A program made the position numbers and the translations under genes. Positions 1,458 through 62,438 of a stretch of DNA of 64,000 bases are shown in pieces. The notes under the pieces were generated by a model. It did no database searches and was not told the DNA's origin. It saw only the letters and a program-made list of their open reading frames with translations. The DNA comes from a virus, in the IMG/VR virus record IMGVR_UViG_3300042309_002578, positions 32,001 to 96,000 of that record; one strand, written 5' to 3'. Position 1 is the stretch's first letter. Every line of letters starts with the position of its first letter.

Positions 1458-2528
1458 TTAGTATGGAGGCATATCAGCATCGCTTACTTCAATTTTTGCT
1501 GTTACTTGTGTGCCAGCCATGTATGCAGATGCTGGGACTTTCGGTCGCCCAGATGTTGCAGTACCAAACTCTTCGACATCATCTAAGATGTCTAGATTTG
1601 TTGATCCTATTTTCGGAGTGTATTGCTCGTACTTATTGTGGATCGCAATTATAAGCTTTGATAGCTCGGTTTTGCCTTTGATTAGATTCTGCCCCAATTT
1701 TTCTGGGGTAGGGACTTCATATCTTGAAAAGTCGCACACATCCTTGACGTTTGGTGGCGTACCCGCTGGTTTGCTAGTAATTGTCGGCGCAAAGATGCCG
1801 TGTGCGTACCAGATTGAGTTCATTTTCTTGGGTTTCTTTTCGCCACGAAGTTGGGCGTAGGCAAGTTCTAGTTCGGCTATAAAGCCTTTCTCAAGCTTCA
1901 GTTCTCTGTCGTATGATCTGTAAGAGACCCCAAACCTCGTTCCCCCTGCGCCACCTAATTTTATTTTTAAGGGCATTGGTAAGGCTTCTTCGGATTCTGG
2001 ATCAAATTCGTCACCCTCTGGGATTGAATGAAGCAATTCGTTGTTCTTGCCGAGTATTAGAATGAATGCTTCAGTGAAAGTCTTGTGAAGCAGGTTGTTG
2101 TACACCTTTTCATCAAATTTTCCAACAGTCCGCTTGGTACTTTTGTCAAGCACAAAGACTGGTGTTTTCTTTACTATAACAAAGCGCGGTTTCCGAGTCA
2201 TCCAGAGTTTTTCTGATCCACTAGTGAACTTATAGTCCACTTCTTCCCAGCCATTCTCTGTTAGGCTCGTGCTCGTCAATCCAACCTTTTCTGCGTTGTC
2301 TAGCCGTATTGCAAGTCCGTATGGTTGAAGTCTTGAATTGCCTTCTTCGTCTGAGATAGGCATAGATGGGTTTATTAGTTGAGCAAAGGGATGACCTTCA
2401 TTTCTCTTACTCTCGAATGATTCGTCAAATCCAAATTCATTTTCTGCTGCTGCTGTGTTTATTGCTGTATTTGAGGCAACCATATTTTTTGTGCGTTTTT
2501 TGAGTTTTGTTTTTGTGTGTGTCTCCAC
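1458..2528 (-). CDS. Hypothetical protein, DUF5895-like; possible ssDNA-binding/annealing protein
   Basis: 356 aa, directly upstream of the helicase, acidic C-terminal tail ending in an aromatic residue (DADMPPY). Family call is from recalled resemblance only. Confidence 0.4.
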   Translation of the reverse strand: METHTKTKLKKRTKNMVASNTAINTAAAENEFGFDESFESKRNEGHPFAQLINPSMPISDEEGNSRLQPYGLAIRLDNAEKVGLTSTSLTENGWEEVDYKFTSGSEKLWMTRKPRFVIVKKTPVFVLDKSTKRTVGKFDEKVYNNLLHKTFTEAFILILGKNNELLHSIPEGDEFDPESEEALPMPLKIKLGGAGGTRFGVSYRSYDRELKLEKGFIAELELAYAQLRGEKKPKKMNSIWYAHGIFAPTITSKPAGTPPNVKDVCDFSRYEVPTPEKLGQNLIKGKTELSKLIIAIHNKYEQYTPKIGSTNLDILDDVEEFGTATSGRPKVPASAYMAGTQVTAKIEVSDADMPPY

Positions 2529-2625
2529 ATTTCTATAATAGCAGCAATATTTGGATTTGGCAAGATAAATAAACTAATAACATATATTTTATACGGCAAA
2601 ATATATGTTATTATATAAATAATGT

Positions 2626-3471
2626 TTATATATTAATGTTTGGCATAAAAGACCTCCTAACAATTTCGATCATTTTTTCTCCTGGTATTTCCATCTCTCG
2701 TGAGAGGATGACAACGGTCGCAATATGTGGATCAGACCCAGACAACAAATTAAAAGCGAGAGCTTTAGCTTTTGACTCCTCTTCGTATCCTGAAATTTTC
2801 ATAATTTCAGAAAGTAGGTGATCATGTCCATGTCTTTTTATGTATCTGTTAACTACATCGCGCAGCTTTAATCCAGATTCTTTTATTGGATATTCTATTG
2901 GATCAGTTTCATGCGGATTGTTTATTCTTTCGGCTTCATTTTTTTTGGATTCAGCGATCGCCTCTTTAGCCATATTCAGAATTTGATCGAAAGTGTAATC
3001 TTTTGTAAAATTACTTAATATTTTAATGGCTTTCTCATTTGCCGTTCTGTGTCTTGTTTTAACACTGCTGTCACCACTATGTAAAACGCGATTAATAACA
3101 TCCCTGTTTAGTCCTTTCTTCCCAAGAAAGTCGCCAGTTAATGCCGCAAAATCATCAAGGGTTAAACCTTTTGCCTCACTTGGCGGGACAGTTGTTCTCC
3201 CATATTTTTTTTCTTGCCTAATTCCCGACCATTTTTTCGCAAAAGTTTGATATTTAATTTCTACCTCACTATCTTTAAGATCGGGATAAGCTCCTTCTAT
3301 CCTTTTTTCTGGAAAATGTGGATCATTAATAATTTGTGAAATTGTCGTAGCTATTTTTGTTTTGTGGTTTTTTTTCCGCAATAATTCACTCCACTCTTCT
3401 GTAAGTAATTCGTCTTTTGCCTCTTCGCTTTGTACCTCTTCGCTTTGTTCTGTTTCAGCATCTGTTAGCAT
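2626..3471 (-). CDS. Hypothetical protein, possible DNA-binding regulator
   Basis: 281-aa ORF divergent from the RNR operon; helical and charged. Confidence 0.45.
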   Translation of the reverse strand: MLTDAETEQSEEVQSEEAKDELLTEEWSELLRKKNHKTKIATTISQIINDPHFPEKRIEGAYPDLKDSEVEIKYQTFAKKWSGIRQEKKYGRTTVPPSEAKGLTLDDFAALTGDFLGKKGLNRDVINRVLHSGDSSVKTRHRTANEKAIKILSNFTKDYTFDQILNMAKEAIAESKKNEAERINNPHETDPIEYPIKESGLKLRDVVNRYIKRHGHDHLLSEIMKISGYEEESKAKALAFNLLSGSDPHIATVVILSREMEIPGEKMIEIVRRSFMPNINI

Positions 3472-9965: not shown

Positions 9966-10860
9966 ATTTGTACTCACACCACGTCAACGCCCAGCACCAT
10001 CGGTAAAAAAGCCCGACGGATGCCACCCTTGGCGACAAAAACATATTGTAATCCCCGCACAGCAAGGGTTTCGTGTTTTTGGCAATATTCCCCCGCAGCC
10101 GTCCCCCAAGCCGCAAACCAACCATTTGCACCAACGCCCTAACAACGCCCGTGCCACCAGCTAAAAACCTAAAATCTGCCCAGTCTTGGCGATAAAAACA
10201 TATTGCAATATCCGCACAGCAAGGGTTTTGTGTTTTTAGCGATCGCTCCCCCGCAGCCGTCCCCCAAGCCGCAAACCAACCATTTGCACCAATGCCCTAA
10301 CAACGCCCGTGCCACCAGCTAAAAACCTAAAATCTGTCCAGCCTTGGCGACAAAAAACATATTGCAATATCCGCACAGCAAGGGTTTTGTGTTTTTAGCG
10401 ATCGCTCCCCCGCAGCCGTCCTCAAAGTCATAAACCAACCATTTGCACCAACACCCTGACAACGCCCGTGCCACCAGCTAAAAACCTAAAATCTGTCCAG
10501 CCTTGGCGACAAAAAACATATTGCAATATCCGCACAGCAAGGGTTTTGTGTTTTGGCAATATTCCCCCGCAGCCGTCTCCAAACCGGCAAAACAGACATT
10601 CGTTCTCAGCCTGGACTAACGTCGATAAAATCAAAATCTTGTAACACGCCTCAAACCCGCATTCTCTCGTTAAAAAATCTGTGGCGGATTATAACATAAG
10701 GTGTGTCAAAAGTAAAGGGAAGATACAAAGAAAAAAGGGCAGTTTCCTATAAGAAAGTGATCATCTTCCCAATTTTATTTTTGATTAAAATCAAAAAATT
10801 ATGCAAGTACGCACCTATATCCAAAATTTCTGTAATACGTTTGTAATATAAAAATAAATC
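9966..10860. repeat. Repeat-array element copy A: ~4 units of 157-159 bp plus conserved leader
   Basis: CATATTG anchors at 10042, 10199, 10358, 10517; leader ~10575-10860 nearly identical to copies C and F. Confidence 0.95.
10688..10716 (-). promoter_or_regulatory. Sigma70-type promoter in leader pointing into the repeat array
   Basis: Minus strand TTTACT-17-TATAAT with TG extension; equivalents at 12488-12517, 22159-22187, 40446-40474(+), 49630-49658, 61600-61629. Confidence 0.7.
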
Positions 10861-12144: not shown

Positions 12145-12670
12145 GTTTTTTGTCGGTAGAACATATTGCAATCTAGCCACAGCAAGGCTTTTGTGTTTTA
12201 GCGATATTTCCCCCGCAGCCGCACCAAAATTATAAAACGAGCATTTGTACTCACACCACGTCAACGCCCAGCACCATCGGCAAAAAAGCCCGACGGATGC
12301 CCAGTCTTGTTACAAAAACATATTGTAATCCCCACATAACAAGGCTTCTGTCTTTGGGTCGGCTGCGGGGAGACATTCCCAAAATCATAAAGCGGATATT
12401 CGTTCCCAGTTTTGGATAATGCCCCATAAAACTAAAATCTTGTAACACGCCTCAAACCCCTATTTTACTGTTAAAAATTTGGGGCGGATTATATCATAGT
12501 GAGCGTACCAAAGTCAAGGGAAGATGTGAAATAAAAATGGCATTTCCTTAAAGAAACAATGCACATCTTCCCAAATATTTTTTCCTTTTTTATAAAAATA
12601 TTATGCAAGTACGCACCTAGATAAAAAACCTGTAATACGCCTGTAATATACAAAATGATTTTCAAATACC
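12145..12670. repeat. Repeat-array element copy B: ~2 diverged units plus leader
   Basis: Anchors at 12162 and 12319; leader with GGGAAGAT...ATCTTCCC; followed by promoter at 12673. Confidence 0.9.
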
Positions 12671-18130: not shown

Positions 18131-18204
18131 CTCCCCCGGCACGACTCGAACGTGCGGCATCGAAATTAACAGTTTCGCGCTCTAACCAACTGAGCTACAG
18201 GGGA
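18131..18204 (-). tRNA. tRNA-Asn(GTT)
   Basis: Full cloverleaf TCCCCTG/CGGGGGA, anticodon arm CGAAA-CTGTTAA-TTTCG, T loop TTCGAGT; no encoded CCA. Confidence 0.92.
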
Positions 18205-18225
18205 ATGACTTCTAGCTAACTAGAA

Positions 18226-18296
18226 CGAGGCTAGGGAGGATCGAACTCCCAACTTAAGATCGACAATCTTAGGGTTTACCATTAACCTATAGCCCC
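18226..18296 (-). tRNA. tRNA-Asp(GTC)
   Basis: GGGGCTA/TAGCCTC acceptor, TAAGA-TTGTCGA-TCTTA anticodon arm, TTCGATC T loop. Confidence 0.85.
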
Positions 18297-18480
18297 TGTG
18301 CTTTCCCTTACACCACAAAGGATGCTAACGTTAAACTCCTAGTTGTTCAGGCATTGCTGCTAGGGTGAGAAAACTACCGGGCTTTATTCTGTTCACAGCT
18401 TTGCCATTCTGTGTCTACATTGGCTGCTGGCATGGAGCCACACAACTTCAGTGTAGTGCTGTTTTTCGTTATACGAGAAG

Positions 18481-18552
18481 TATCCCTGGAGAGGATCGAA
18501 CTCTCTTTGCTAGGATGAAAACCTAGTGAACTACCCAATGTTCGACAGGGAC
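18481..18552 (-). tRNA. tRNA-Glu(TTC)
   Basis: GTCCCTG/CAGGGAT acceptor, CTAGG-TTTTCAT-CCTAG anticodon arm, TTCGATC T loop. Confidence 0.85.
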
Positions 18553-21441: not shown

Positions 21442-21511
21442 TAATAAGCAAGAATTACAAGCAGCACCATAAATTAATTTTATGGTGCTGCTTGTTTATG
21501 TCTTTTGGGAG

Positions 21512-22335
21512 AAAAACATATTGTAATCCCCGCACAGCAAGGGTTTTGTGTTTTGGTAATATTTCCCCCGCAGCCGACCCAAAACTATAAACCAAACATT
21601 TGCACCAACACCCTAACAACGCCCCGTGTCATCGGCTAGAAAACCTAAAATCTGCTCAACTTTGGTGGTAAAAACATATTGCAATCCCCGCACAGTAATG
21701 GTTTCAGCTTTTGGTAATATTTCCCGCAGCCGTCCCCCACAACCCAAACATTTGTACCAACGCCCTAACAACGCCCGTGCCACCGGCTTAAAAACCTAAA
21801 ATCTGTCCAGCCTTGGCGACAAAAAACATATTGCAATATCCGCACAGCAAGGGTTTTGTGTTTTTAGCGATCGCTCCCCGCAGCCGTCCCCCCCAAGCCG
21901 CAAACCAACCATTTGCACCAACGCCCTACTAACGCCCGTGCCACCGGACATAAAACCTAAAATCTGTCCAGCCTTGGCGATAAAAACATATTGCAATCTC
22001 CGCACAGCAAGGGTTTTGTGTTTTTAGCGATCGCTCCCCGCAGCCGTCTCCAAACCGGCAAAACAGACATTCGTTCCCAGCCTGGGCTAACGCCGATAAA
22101 ATCCCAATCTTGTAACACGCCTCAAACCCGCATTCTCTCGTTAAAAAATCTGTGGCGGATTATAACATAAGGTGTGTCAAAAGTAAAGGGAAGATGCAAA
22201 GAAAAAAGGGCATTTTCCTATAAGAAAGTGATCATCTTCCCAATTTTATTTTTGATTAAAATCAAAAAATTATGCAAGTACGCACCTATGTCTAAAATTC
22301 TTGTAATACGTCTGTAATACAAAAATAAATTAAAA
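21512..22335. repeat. Repeat-array element copy C: ~4 units plus leader
   Basis: Anchors at 21517, 21675, 21827, 21987; preceded by a long hairpin at ~21456-21496. Confidence 0.95.
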
Positions 22336-29281: not shown

Positions 29282-29354
29282 GCAGGATTGGCCGAGAGGT
29301 TAAGGCAACAAACTCATAATTTGTGGTAGACAGGTTCGATTCCTGTATCCTGTA
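29282..29354 (+). tRNA. tRNA with CAT anticodon, probably tRNA-Ile2 (lysidine)
   Basis: GCAGGAT/ATCCTGT acceptor, GGCCGAG..GGC D arm, ACAAA-CTCATAA-TTTGT; resembles cyanobacterial/plastid trnI-CAU and lacks the initiator GGG/CCC stem. Confidence 0.85.
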
Positions 29355-38027: not shown

Positions 38028-38066
38028 AGTATTTTTGAGATTCCGTTGTGTGCGCCTATTTTTTGG

Positions 38067-38310
38067 GCATTTAAAGGGCGTTCTAGTTTCTACCTCAGAA
38101 AAGAATTTCCCCAATTAAAAAAACTACCGTCTCTTTGGACAAGTAGTTATTTTGTAAGCACCGCAGGGAATGTTAGTGGTGAATCGGTGAGGAAATATAT
38201 TGAAGATCCGCATCACGGATAATACAGAAAATACCACAGCGGTTAAAACCGCTCGCGCCGCTTCCCTCTCAGGTCTAAAGACGCTGAGTTTCCCACTTAC
38301 CGTGAGGTGT
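38067..38310 (+). mobile_element. tnpA: IS200 TnpA 3' fragment with element end
   Basis: AFKGRSSFYLRKEFPQLKKLPSLWTSSYFVSTAGNVSGESVRKYIEDPHHG* (38067-38221) with the catalytic Tyr helix, followed by hairpin CTCAGGTCTAAAGACGCTGAG. Confidence 0.85.
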
Positions 38311-40299: not shown

Positions 40300-40877
40300 A
40301 CAAATTATTTTTATATTACAACCGTGTTACAAGAATTTTAGATATAGGTGCGTACTTGCACAACATATTGATTAAACCCAAAAATAAAGTTGGGAAGACG
40401 ATCACTCTTTATAAGGAAACTGCCATTTTTTCTTTGCATCTTCCCTTTACTTTTGACACACCTTGTGTTATACTCCGCTTTCGGTTTCATCACGAGAGAA
40501 TGAGGGTTTGCGGCGTGTTACAAGATTGGGTTTTGGCGGTATTAGACCAAGCCGAAAACAAATGTCCGTTTGGCAGTTTTGGGGGACGGCTGCGGGGGAA
40601 TATTGCCAAAAACTGAAACCCTTGCTACGTGGGGATTGCAATATGTTTTTGCCACCAAAGTTAGAGCAGACTTTGGGCTTTTAGCCGGTGGCACGGGCGT
40701 TAACGAGGTGTTGGTACAAATGTCCGTTTTATGATTTTGGGGATGGCTGCGGGGGAATATTGCTAAAAACACAAAACCATTGCTGTGTGGGGATTGCAAT
40801 ATGTTTTTGCCACCAAAGTTAGAGCAGACTTTGGGCTTTTAGCCGGTGGCACGGGCGTTAACGAGGTGTTGGTACAA
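40300..40877. repeat. Repeat-array element copy D (inverted orientation)
   Basis: Reverse-complement leader 40300-40570; CAATATG anchors at 40639 and 40797. Confidence 0.92.
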
Positions 40878-40989
40878 TTGGGGCGATAGATACTGGGGAA
40901 GAGATACAGATGGCAATGGGGAAAACCATCTTGGTAAGCTTTTGATGAAACTGCGCGAAGAGTATAGGAACGATAATCCTGTAGCTTAA
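40876..40989 (+). pseudogene. NADAR (YbiA-like) C-terminal fragment
   Basis: NWGDRYWGRDTDGNGENHLGKLLMKLREE*; fused directly to the array end. Confidence 0.8.
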
Positions 40990-42469: not shown

Positions 42470-42698
42470 TTAAACAAATATTGTAATCCTCGCGCAGCAA
42501 GGCTTTTGTGTTTTAGCGATCGCTCCCCGCAGCCGTCTCCCCACCATAAACCAAATATTTGTACCAGCACCCTATCAACGCCTCGCACCATCGGTAAAAT
42601 CGACCTCCCTTTATTTTTTATTAAATAAAATATATTGTGCAAATACGCACCTGTATTAAAAAATCCCGTAATACAGGTGTAATACGAAAAATAATTTG
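42470..42698. repeat. Repeat-array element copy E (one unit joined to the last ~90 bp of leader)
   Basis: Unit motif CAGCAAGGCTTTTGTGTTTTAGCGATCGCTCCCCGCAGCCG, then leader end TACGCACCT...GTAATAC. Confidence 0.85.
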
Positions 42699-48611: not shown

Positions 48612-48679
48612 TACTTTCGCTTATTTAATATAAAAACAGGGATGCCAATACACACTAGCATCCCTGTTTTTATATTAAA

Positions 48680-49805
48680 TAACATATTGCAATCCCCACA
48701 CAACAAGGGTTTCGTGTTTTTGGCAATATTCCCCGCAGCCGTTCCCCCCAAGCCGCAAACCAACCATTTGCACCAACGCCCTAACAACGCCCGTGCCACC
48801 GGCTAAAAACCTAAAATCTGCCCAGTCTTGTCGGTAAAAACATATTGCAATCCCCGCACAGCAAGGGTTTCGTGTTTTTGGCAATATTCCCCCGCAGCCG
48901 TTCCCCCAAGCCGCAAACCAACCATTTGCACCAACGCCCTAACAACGCCCGTGCCACCAGCTAAAAACCTAAAATCTGCCCAGTCTTGTCGGTAAAAACA
49001 TATTGCAATCCCCGCACAGCAAGGGTTTCGTGTTTTTGGCAATATTCCCCCGCAGCCGTTCCCCCCAAGCCGCAAACCAACCATTTGCACCAACGCCCTA
49101 ACAACGCCCGTGCCACCGGCTTAAAAACCTAAAATCTGTCCAGCCTTGGCGACAAAAAACATATTGCAATCCCCGCACAGCAAGGGTTTCGTGTTTTTGG
49201 CAATATTCCCCCGCAGCCGTCCCCAAAATCCACGAACCAAACATTTGTACCAACACCCCACTAACACCCGTGCCACCGGCTAAAAACCCAAAATCTGCCC
49301 TAGCTTTGTCGGTAAAAACATATTGCAATCCCTATGTAGCAAGGACTTTGTGTTTTTGGCAATATTCCCCCGCAGCCGTCCCATTTGTACCAACACCTCA
49401 CTAACACCCGTGCCACCGGCTAAAAAACCTAAAATCTGCACCAACTTTGGTGACAAAACATATTGCAATCCCCGCGCAGTAAGGCTTCCAGCTTTGTCGG
49501 TATTTCCCCCGCAGCCGTCTCCAAACCGGCAAAACAGACATTCATTCCCAGCCTGGACTAACGCCGATAAAATCAAAATCTTGTAACACGCCTCAAACCC
49601 GCATTCTCTCGTTAAAAAATCTGTGGCGGATTATAACATAAGGTGTGTCAAAAGTAAAGGGAAGATACAAAGAAAAAAGGGCAATTTCCTATAAGAAAGT
49701 GATCATCTTCCCAATTTTATTTTTGATTAAAATCAAAAAATTATGCAAGTACGCACCTATGTCTAAAATTCTTGTAATACGTTTGTAATATAAAAATGAT
49801 TTTGA
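48680..49805. repeat. Repeat-array element copy F: 6 units plus leader
   Basis: Anchors at 48683, 48841, 48999, 49160, 49319, 49459; promoter 49814 follows. Confidence 0.95.
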
Positions 49806-60069: not shown

Positions 60070-60706
60070 ACTGATTTAATAAACCATTTTGCATTTTGAT
60101 TCCGATAAAATGCAAAATGGTTAAAAATCGGTGTAATAAAATAATACAAAGCGCGATACCGACACCTATCAATAGACAACAAAATTGCGATCGCAACAAC
60201 AAAAAATATGCTAGTTAAAGACTTTTTAGAATTTGCCGAACAGGTTAGACAATCTAGTGAGAAAGACCAATCTGTGCTAGACCTAGAGCTAAATTTTTAT
60301 GATGGAAGCGAGTCATGGGACATAGACAAATTAGAAATAACTATGCCTGACGCAGAAACAGAAGAACCAGGTTATGTTGTCTTTGAGTTAAAAACAAGTA
60401 TTGACATAGAAGATGACCGGTTTGACAGAAGTCACCCAGAAATACGCCATGAAGTAGTAGCCCCATAAGTGCAGCGAAACCTTTTAAGGACTAACAGCTA
60501 CTGGAAGTTAGCCCTTAAAGAAAAAAGCATAATATTTAAGATTATGCAATTTTTTCTGTCAAATGGATTTTGTGAGCGAATCCCACGAAGCGGGTATTTT
60601 GCTTCTTGCTAAATTTCAAGAATTTAGACAGCTAACCCTAGCTCTATATTTATATTTCTTTCTTAGTTGTATTGCATATTTTTTCTTCTCGTGCTATAAT
60701 TATATT

Positions 60707-61120
60707 AACGAGAGTAAATCCTTAGATCAAGCGTACTGCGTTTTGGTTTTAAACTGTTCTCGTTCGGGTCTTGTTCGCAAGGAGACAAGATATCCAGGGA
60801 AATTCCCCCGTTACTATACGTATGCGGTTTTAAAAAGCCTATACCTGGAAGGCAACTCGTACCTCGGATGCGAGACAACCTCAAAAAGCTGACAGGACGC
60901 GAGGCAGATGGTTACTGCCAAGATTGAAGAAACATAAGAACCTTCGCCTCATCGATCCTAACGGATTAAACATCAGATCCTTGAAGAAACTGGTGAGCCT
61001 ATAGAGGTGCTATAGGCACGTTGGTGAAAACTAACAAGATTTTGAAGGGAGCTTGAGCCAGTAACTGTCCTGGATTAAAGTGCATTACAAAAGCACACCA
61101 AGCTTCGGTCATGCTTTTTG
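60707..61120 (+). ncRNA. Candidate large structured ncRNA
   Basis: TTGCAT-17-TGnTATAAT promoter (60672-60700), many helices, hairpin plus T-run at ~61090-61120, no credible ORF. Confidence 0.55.
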
Positions 61121-61594
61121 GTTTTCAAGCAACAAAATTATGATCTAACCTTGGGTTTCCAACCGTGTGGACTAAATCACCGCACAAAAGCACACTAAGT
61201 ATTAGACATAATTATTCTCATTGTTTTTTATTCCGCAAAAACCTAACGCCAAGTGTGTATGCGCTTATTTTAAGCGTTTATATTATTTTGGTATTTAAAA
61301 CTGCGATTTTGTCGTTGCTAGAATCTTTTTATCTTTTTCTGGACAAATAAAAATCGTTAGCTTTAGTTTATCGTCCTAAATTCTGTGAATTTAGGACAAA
61401 TTGTCATGCTTATTTTTATTAAAGCCAGATATGCACAGGCGTAAATATAGGCGCATAGAATACATTTGTTCTGTGCTTCGCTGAAAACGGTGATTTTTGG
61501 CGGCAAAAAACTACAAGCGTGTTACATGATTTTTGGCAATGACAACGACTGAAATGCCTATTCTATCGTAAGGTTGGACACCAAATTTTCAAAT

Positions 61595-61720
61595 TACATA
61601 TAATACCATAAAGTGGGTACAAAAGTCAAGGGAAGATACAAAGAAAAAAGGGTAGTTTCCTGTAAGAAAGTGATCATCTTCCCAGCTTTATTTTTCAGTG
61701 AAATTATAAATGTATTACAA
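61595..61720. repeat. Repeat-element copy G (leader only, degenerate)
   Basis: AAAAGTCAAGGGAAGATACAAAGAAAAAAGGGTAGTTTCCTGTAAGAAAGTGATCATCTTCCC. Confidence 0.85.
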
Positions 61721-62438
61721 GCACCCTCTTATTATGGCTATTGCAACGGAGGCGCATTTGTTGAAAGAAAGGAAAGATGGTGGGAAGGTGATAGTTTAGC
61801 GATCTAACAAAGAAATTGTGGAGATTTTATTCCGATAGCTTGGTAAGCGTAAAACTCAGTGGATAAAGCCACTGAGAGTGTCAATTCCTCGTTCGCACCC
61901 TGATGCAAACAATAATGATCCGAACAACTTCAAAAGGTGCTAATTAGAGCTTTTGTGTAACCAAAGTGGCGATCGCCACATTAGCTAAAACCTAAAAGGA
62001 TCAATACCGGGGTTGGAGTAGAGCAAGAAAGCTGCTTGAGCAGCACGGAAAAGACGCAGACAATTTTGCTTATGAATTCCAAATAAGTGAAATAAAGCTA
62101 ATGCAGCTTGACGGTGGCTTTGCAGTTCCTATGTTCGCTCTAAATGGAGTGTCAGGCTACAGACTGGTAATTAAGAATGATCTGCCAACCGTAATGTCTA
62201 ATTATTTTCAATTCGCCATAGAAGAGGACGAGTTGAAGGTCAGAGAATGGGCAGAATCTAACTACAAGAAACTATTCGACTGTGCCAGCATGGGTGACAT
62301 TTCCCGACTAGTAGAATCAACTCCCAAGCTGAAGAAAAAAGTTAGGAGTGGTTTAATATGCAATAATTTTAGTTGACTTTTTTGTTGACCATAGTATTAT
62401 AGATATATAGACAAAAACCAAAAACAAAAAAGAAAACA

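Follow-up and report, generated by a model that had tools for sequence, protein, structure and literature searches.

A candidate non-coding RNA of a cyanophage carries a three-way junction homologous to RNA of host ORF-less ISC transposons

Large phage-associated non-coding RNAs such as GOLLD and ROOL measure hundreds of nucleotides and are built of multiple helices, and the RNA anti-CRISPRs, or solitary repeat units, of phages mimic the part of the host RNA that is bound by Cas proteins. The closest relatives of the locus described here are the ORF-less (PATE-like) IscB/ISC transposons of Nostocaceae, which carry the HEARO RNA (RF02033). Protein-free PATE elements with omega-RNAs are a known class, and RF02033 is known to miss downstream structure (Meers et al., bioRxiv 10.1101/2023.03.14.532601). 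Cyanobacterial ISC elements that start with 5′-GTCA and stop just short of an ATGA are described by Kapitonov et al. 2016 (PMC4810608).

The phage locus lies in a window of 64,000 bases, namely bases 32001-96000 of the 138,383-base IMG/VR virus record IMGVR_UViG_3300042309_002578, the completeness of which is estimated at 83%; coordinates below count from the first base of this window. The phage probably infects a bloom-forming cyanobacterium of the Nostocales. Its thymidylate kinase (63466-64029, − strand) is 64-78% identical to versions from Dolichospermum, Anabaena, Aphanizomenon, Cuspidothrix and Nostoc, and the phage record contains 69 copies of GCGATCGC, the HIP1 word of cyanobacteria. 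No close cultured or IMG/VR relative of the phage was found. The region 60500-61400 has no blastn match among 50,697 phage records, and an exact 25-mer search of IMG/VR was equally without a match. Flanking proteins (198 aa; RuvC-like) have no relatives in IMG/VR, and a flanking RecJ-like protein has a single one at 31% identity, its matches in phage records being below 38%. One metagenome scan for relatives yielded a single near-identical contig, L002. The candidate RNA sits inside a 1.6-kb gap without credible genes (60469-62100). GC content is 0.41-0.44 over 60600-61199, with flanks at 0.33-0.37; a reading of the window made from the sequence alone had drawn attention to a GC-richer stretch here, and the values of 0.427 for 60672-61130 and 0.377 for the whole window agree with it. 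The gap and its immediate surroundings contain the following features.

60527..60560, + strand: hairpin with a 7-bp AT-rich stem, an A-run before and a T-run after it (read from the sequence)
60692..60700, + strand: extended −10 promoter element TGCTATAAT (exact sequence match)
60707..61127, + strand: body of the candidate non-coding RNA (strand-asymmetric fold, no Rfam family, no conserved ORF)
60707..60764, + strand: 5′ hairpin, an outer 8-pair stem around an inner hairpin (thermodynamic prediction only, z −1.42)
60997..61017, + strand: perfect 8-bp hairpin with a 5-nt loop (predicted fold)
61020..61035, + strand: 6-bp hairpin with a GAAA loop (predicted fold)
61048..61106, + strand: three-way junction, homologue of the tip of a host ISC-element RNA domain (BLAST, HMM, covariance model, covariation)
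61048-55 with 61099-106, + strand: junction helix P1
61058-61 with 61070-73, + strand: junction helix P2, loop UAACUGUC
61080-83 with 61093-96, + strand: junction helix P3, loop AUUACAAAA
61115..61125, + strand: U-rich run, proposed terminator tail (predicted pairing with 61025-61036; no terminator call)
61600..61710, − strand: copy of a repeated 111-nt promoter module, pointing left toward the 3′ end of the candidate
61834..61890, + strand: solo transposon-end hairpin, an ISC/IS605-type subterminal palindrome (host matches)

We propose that the locus forms a transcription unit of its own in a cyanophage probably infecting bloom-forming Nostocales; the extended −10 promoter at 60692-60700 would give rise to a + strand non-coding RNA of about 420 nt or more. 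The last ~100 nt of this RNA (61025-61127) would form a long arm tipped by the three-way junction 61048-61106, which would have been captured from host ORF-less IscB-type (ISC/HEARO) transposons. On the host side, the same junction caps an RNA domain found at the position that the iscB nuclease gene has in other copies, and in the phage RNA as in the transposon RNAs the junction, with its near-invariant loops, might act as a handle for a host partner and/or as a stabiliser of the 3′ end. Taken as a whole, the reading that we tentatively prefer, with confidence a little short of even, is that of a real and separately promoted non-coding RNA of the phage that has captured an RNA module from a transposon.

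The extended −10 element TGCTATAAT, noted in the sequence-only reading, is indeed present at 60692-60700. The word TGNTATAAT occurs 12 times in the window, against an expectation of 4.63 ± 2.12, and none of 100 shuffles reaches this number. Eleven of the 12 sites lie outside ORFs of at least 80 aa, although such ORFs cover 68% of the window, and the sole site within an ORF is that of the candidate itself, inside the doubtful ORF 60563-60892. Seven sites are located no more than 400 nt upstream of a same-strand ORF, and four head the repeated promoter module. Given that TGNTATAAT is enriched, mostly intergenic and often precedes genes, the element at 60692 very likely functions as a promoter that fires rightward; it is a sigma-70-type extended −10 of the kind that marks promoters in this phage genome, and it is positioned to drive the unit. 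Counting 6-8 nt past the −10, transcription would start near 60707. In L002 the element at the promoter position differs yet remains −10-like. Further upstream, the hairpin at 60527-60560 is likely the transcript end of the preceding gene, which it would separate from the candidate; a consensus terminator scan made no call at this hairpin.

The region had further been described as highly structured. All nine helix pairs that were named are in place, each Watson-Crick or with one G-U, and the + strand folds at −121.7 kcal/mol (z −2.72, with none of 100 shuffles equally stable), compared with z −0.53 and 27 of 100 shuffles as good for the − strand. However, for 22 windows of 420 nt spaced 2700 bases apart along the same phage, z averages −1.48 (sd 1.50) and reaches a minimum of −4.43, with 5 of the 22 at or below −2.4; re-scored in the same way, the candidate has z −2.09 (+) and −0.10 (−). 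Since its z of −2.1 to −2.7 falls inside the spread of these windows, the candidate is structured beyond chance only when compared with shuffles, not when compared with the phage genome, and the description as highly structured is not borne out. A distinct fold is confined to the final ~140 nt (60990-61128; z −3.10, 0 of 200 shuffles, MFE structure representing 10% of the ensemble). In a local MFE alternative, the strands of the hairpin 61020-61035 pair with the U-run, forming the base of the 3′ arm. The 5′ ~340 nt of the candidate have no relatives in the phage records, IMG/VR, the metagenome scan or the 389 host-family genomes, and presumably carry a phage-specific role. Two host matches to the 5′ hairpin (E about 1e-3) were dismissed as chance: the hairpin is not kept in them and the sequence context is another.

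The most informative part of the candidate is the junction. When 60680-61130 was compared by BLAST with host genomes, a match recurred at query positions 371-424, which correspond to window 61050-61103. It is multicopy and was obtained in 61 of 389 Nostocaceae-family genomes at E ≤ 0.05; identity ranges from 80 to 93%, the best match having E 5.9e-10 with 88% identity over 51 nt, and nothing credible was recovered beyond the junction across the 389 genomes. When the 138-kb phage record was searched with an HMM of the host motif, one match was significant (E 4.8e-12) and six others were noise (E 4-7.2); of an HMM that covers the full host element, only positions 319-372 match the phage (E 2.5e-13). 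Furthermore, a covariance model built from 25 host copies only (R1) finds a single match in the 64-kb window (48.4 bits, E 1.2e-10), located on the + strand at 61050-61104. Of the full model (positions 1-128) the phage aligns to positions 36-89, the junction alone; it thus possesses P1, P2 and P3 with the two conserved loops and lacks the basal helices P0 and Pa.

In the hosts, the junction helices are supported by covariation. RNAalifold, applied to the 25 host copies, found the junction independently, atop the helices P0 and Pa, with compensatory changes in 14 of 25 pairs. In an alignment of 31 host copies and the phage, examined at the 14 pairs of P1, P2 and P3, 92.4% of cells are paired, nine pairs change on both sides (in 41 cells), and the observed pairing or covariation score is reached by none of 500 shuffles; with partners slid by 1-3 columns as a control, pairing is 26-40%. 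The 35 G-U cells of the alignment fit the HEARO-sense strand only. Inspection of the host alignment by eye revealed no consistent pattern of loop-loop covariation between L2 and L3. The phage copy has all three helices intact with pairs of its own and folds identically when taken alone: P1 is lengthened to 8 pairs, P2 is CCAG/CUGG with an outermost C-G pair that is rare among hosts (G-C there in 1 of 31), and both loops equal the host consensus. Homology to the hosts ends exactly at the two P1 strands. In the MFE structure of 60990-61128 the non-homologous flanks pair too, through 3 pairs followed by a 10-pair A/U-rich base that uses the U-run, and the layout of this 3′ arm (MFE, z −3.10) resembles that of the host P0-Pa-P1 arm. 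A remnant of a transposon end after the junction, suspected by eye, was not supported by the element HMM.

The host copies belong to ISC transposons, which start with 5′-GTCA and end just before ATGA. HEARO RNA (108-158 bits, Rfam) is present in 19 of the 20 host junction loci tested, on the same strand and ending ~60 nt upstream. The host domain as a whole comprises ~115 nt, a P0-Pa-P1 arm tipped by the three-way junction (for example, L091:1457-1583, L093:1457-1583 and L090:1460-1586, − strand); it has no Rfam 15 family, and a limited literature search found no published description of it. R1 detects the domain in 16 of 151 sampled cyanobacterial genomes, with up to at least 22 copies each, and all host matches span positions 1-128 except two that are cut by contig ends. 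IscB-encoding copies (RRXRR + HNH) have the HEARO part and the 3′ end in common with the ORF-less copies and are without the domain: the motif HMM matches 0 of 6 IscB loci, as against 2 of 4 other HEARO loci, and the element HMM matches the IscB loci only at about 26-286 and 402-498. Because the domain is missing from IscB copies that otherwise share the element, it evidently stands in place of the nuclease gene, that is, the ~115-nt RNA domain occupies the position of iscB in ORF-less HEARO/ISC elements of Nostocaceae. Host elements (L083, L119, L093, L099 and others) end exactly before an ATGA of which the ATG is the start codon of an unrelated host gene; we take these genes to be iscA-like in L083 and gatC-like in L119, judging by eye from the translations. 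In L083, an IS110-family transposase gene (Transposase_20, E 4e-5; 1915-3009, − strand) is found ~80 nt upstream of the HEARO element on the same strand. The host 3′ ends agree with the N|ATGA target given for ISC elements in PMC4810608.

Homology to a transposon raises the main alternative, namely that the junction is what remains of an ORF-less transposon of the host ISC type that had inserted or recombined into a phage gap tolerant of junk DNA, the nearby hairpins being there by chance and any transcript being functionless; we consider this possible, albeit unlikely. The same gap contains a second piece of transposon. With a 1-kb query, matches at E ≤ 0.01 were obtained in 81 of the 389 genomes of the host family, mostly at 61834-61890, where the hairpin is 89-97% identical to multicopy short host elements and, at 3 of 6 host loci checked, corresponds to element HMM positions 403-494 or 438-492, read in reverse. 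Being oriented opposite to the junction, from which it is 730 nt away, this hairpin appears to be a separate host-transposon fragment. Elsewhere in the window, a 58-aa ORF (38046-38222, + strand) matches the C-terminal part of the profile for IS200-like Y1 transposases (positions 71-120 of 121) and reads as a broken transposase gene of the phage. In view of this second fragment and the truncated IS200-type transposase, the junction could be debris as well, and the occurrence of complete ORF-less HEARO elements with the domain on five IMG/VR contigs (all five pattern matches), together with a fold z inside the genome background, is in line with such an origin. Random decay fits less well with what has survived, which is solely the structurally complete junction (80-93% identity). 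Nothing is left of the HEARO core, although it is conserved to the same degree, or of the basal helices; homology stops at helix boundaries while the flanks still pair and the three helices remain intact; and 340 nt upstream of the junction there is a promoter of the type that is enriched in this phage. HEARO (RF02033) gives nothing in the window at its gathering score of 83 bits, nothing in 60300-61700 or 60690-61135 even at E ≤ 10, and 0 matches in the whole phage record, compared with 9-17 in three host genomes. Should the junction be debris, the finding would amount to a transposon scrap in a phage gap.

The extent of the unit to the right is less clear, and the 3′ end of the candidate is uncertain (61127, ~61285 or ~61500). 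The terminator proposed in the sequence-only reading at 61100-61125 was not recovered in the consensus scan, in which the nearest + strand calls are at 61261-61277 and 61478-61493; no GC-rich hairpin directly precedes the U-run, the one before it being weak (4+3 pairs, −4.7 kcal/mol, z −0.72). Within the region, local folding is strongest at 61300-61499 (z −6.31 on the + and −4.49 on the − strand), a segment that contains a perfect 9-bp inverted repeat (61372-61398) and lies between the candidate and the leftward promoter.

That promoter belongs to the module copy at 61600-61710, which is 84-86% identical to modules at 10688, 22159 and 49630, and 75% identical to one at 12488; it reads TTGACT-18-TATTAT with TG before, and may give an antisense transcript. 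The 111-nt module consists of a TTGACA-type −35 and TGTTATAAT. Modules and arrays are found at 9966-10816 (−), 21505-22287 (−), 48677-49758 (−), 40346-40881 (+), 12160-12618 (−), 42471-42652 (−) and 61600-61710 (−), and the module family also occurs outside the window, in G000. In several places the module is followed by tandem arrays with units of about 158-160 nt in 2-4.4 copies; the units have no Rfam match, and one unit folds no better than shuffles (z +1.22). Homology of the candidate to the leader of this promoter/array family, suggested by shared 10-12-mers, was rejected, the best local alignment being a 12-mer scored as high by 17 of 200 shuffles. In the leader after one repeated promoter, 30 nt (10650-10679, −) are 93% identical to a small inverted-repeat host element, of which one Dolichospermum-type host genome contains three copies (L159, L160 and L161, about 1380-1600).

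Without a terminator at 61100-61125, with terminator-like sites only at 61261-61277 and 61478-61493, with the next same-strand ORF of at least 80 aa beginning 1401 nt downstream and with a module copy pointing left at 61600-61710, the promoter at 60692 might instead drive a long 5′ leader for the genes from 62101, or engage in convergent transcription with the leftward promoter 61600-61629, the structures acting in cis through attenuation or termination. We regard this second alternative, which ranks next after transposon debris, as improbable: the distance is 1.4 kb with several hairpin + T-run sites in between, and a separate + strand promoter match (11-of-12) at 61575-61604 is nearer to the genes from 62101.

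Returning to the preferred reading, a separately promoted RNA, a hint of transcription comes from public sequencing runs, which were compared by the words shared between their assembled contigs and the candidate region alone. At least half of 42 sampled words of 60680-61130 were shared by 20 of the 24 listed runs, from 14 studies; six of the 20 are RNA runs, from five studies, with word shares of 0.71-0.91, and the source sample may account for three of the DNA runs. We infer that the RNA is made and stable. The fold energy that is ordinary for the phage genome and the absence of a terminator call at the proposed 3′ end count against such an RNA, as does a G>A change at 61051 in L002, which breaks one P1 pair. 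The candidate is evidently not a guide RNA: it lacks the HEARO scaffold to which IscB binds, and neither an RRXRR-domain (IscB) nor a TnpB-type protein is encoded in the phage record. On account of its position near the RNA 3′ end and its near-invariant loops, we favour the junction as a partner-binding or 3′-stabilising handle. A more specific version, in which the phage RNA is a mimic that displays the host junction to capture, or be serviced by, a host factor recognising it, is distinctly improbable in our estimate. The internal segment 60893-60917 is complementary to P2/L2 of the junction and, in this mimic version, could also pair in trans with host junction copies.

The contig L002 bears on the coding potential of the region. 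It is 99% identical to the window across 60622-62101, and L002:45-1607, 1563 bases of unrelated DNA with three − strand ORFs (76, 142 and 115 aa), replaces window 60412-60621, 210 bases that comprise a gene end and the hairpin. These 1563-base and 210-base variants look like a cassette polymorphism within one phage lineage, the right edge of which is the inferred RNA start. Of the 15 differences between L002 and the window, 12 fall in 60641-60705 and only 3 in 60706-62101, so that identity is 86% over the 84 nt preceding 60706 (12 changes) and 99.8% from 60706 on; the near-identical block therefore starts at the inferred RNA start. Two changes, at 60876 and 61051, are inside the RNA body. The view that no conserved protein is encoded by ORF 60563-60892 (109 aa) is upheld, as L002 lacks the first 59 bases of the ORF and has two stops in frame; the ORF has no Pfam or PHROGs family, and neither its frame nor its start is kept in the relative. 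The region thus appears to be non-coding, as supported by these comparisons. A genuine gene at this ORF, or at ORF 60705-60884 on the − strand, is very improbable: both frames are open in the window, but the + ORF belongs to no Pfam or PHROGs family, two upstream stops interrupt its frame in L002, for which no + strand ORF of at least 50 aa is listed, the extended −10 falls within it, and neither start shows a Shine-Dalgarno match as read from the sequence.

Known RNA classes are equally hard to invoke. At gathering scores, Rfam 15 reports only four tRNA genes across the window, at 18131-18552 (−) and 29282-29354 (+). At E ≤ 10 it gives only noise, namely four matches at 60364-60671 (E 2.8-9.5) when 60300-61700 is searched and one snoRNA match at 12.3 bits in 60690-61135 (446 nt). 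The Rfam covariance models agree with the earlier finding that RNase P, tmRNA and group I/II introns are absent, and GOLLD and ROOL are absent likewise. A divergent member of a known ribozyme or RNA class, such as an IStron-like group I intron or an omega-RNA scaffold of a new kind that serves a nuclease not yet recognised, is brought to mind by the size and the GNRA hairpin and by IStrons, which combine a group I intron with IS200/605 parts (PMC13565253), but is scarcely credible given that Rfam offers no credible match even at E ≤ 10 on 446 nt, no split gene surrounds the candidate, and the phage record has no RRXRR or TnpB-type protein. Of the original notion of a novel large phage RNA, the non-coding nature, the promoter of its own and the lack of an Rfam family stand, whereas the novelty does not extend to the 3′ 55-60 nt, which are homologous to host transposon RNA.

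If the RNA is real, part of a phage transcript would derive from an RNA module of guide-RNA (OMEGA/IscB) transposons, which would suggest that functional pieces of RNA pass between transposons and phages of bloom-forming cyanobacteria; if the mimic reading were true, a phage transcript would be tied to the biology of guide-RNA transposons. Independently of the phage, Nostocaceae harbor a covariation-supported ~115-nt RNA domain that evidently replaces a nuclease gene and has near-invariant loops that call for a binding partner.

Compared with the ORF-less IscB/ISC transposons with HEARO (RF02033), the phage junction is alike in sequence (80-93%), in its three helices, in both loops and in strand, and in both settings it is situated in the 3′ part of the predicted RNA. 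Unlike these elements, the phage lacks the HEARO scaffold, P0/Pa, transposon ends and an HMM-recognisable ATGA-type boundary, and its locus lies neither upstream of iscB/isrB nor within an ISC element with ends; in the transposons, 19 of 20 tested junction loci have HEARO just upstream and uncut model matches are full length. The candidate is like GOLLD and ROOL, with which it was compared through Rfam only, in being phage-borne, hundreds of nucleotides long and multi-helix, and unlike them in having no Rfam match, covariation for the junction only and an ordinary fold stability. With the RNA anti-CRISPRs it shares the concept only, that of a phage carrying a fragment of the RNA of a host RNA-guided system: as the junction is absent from IscB-encoding elements, it would not be the nuclease-binding part, unlike the part mimicked by RNA anti-CRISPRs.
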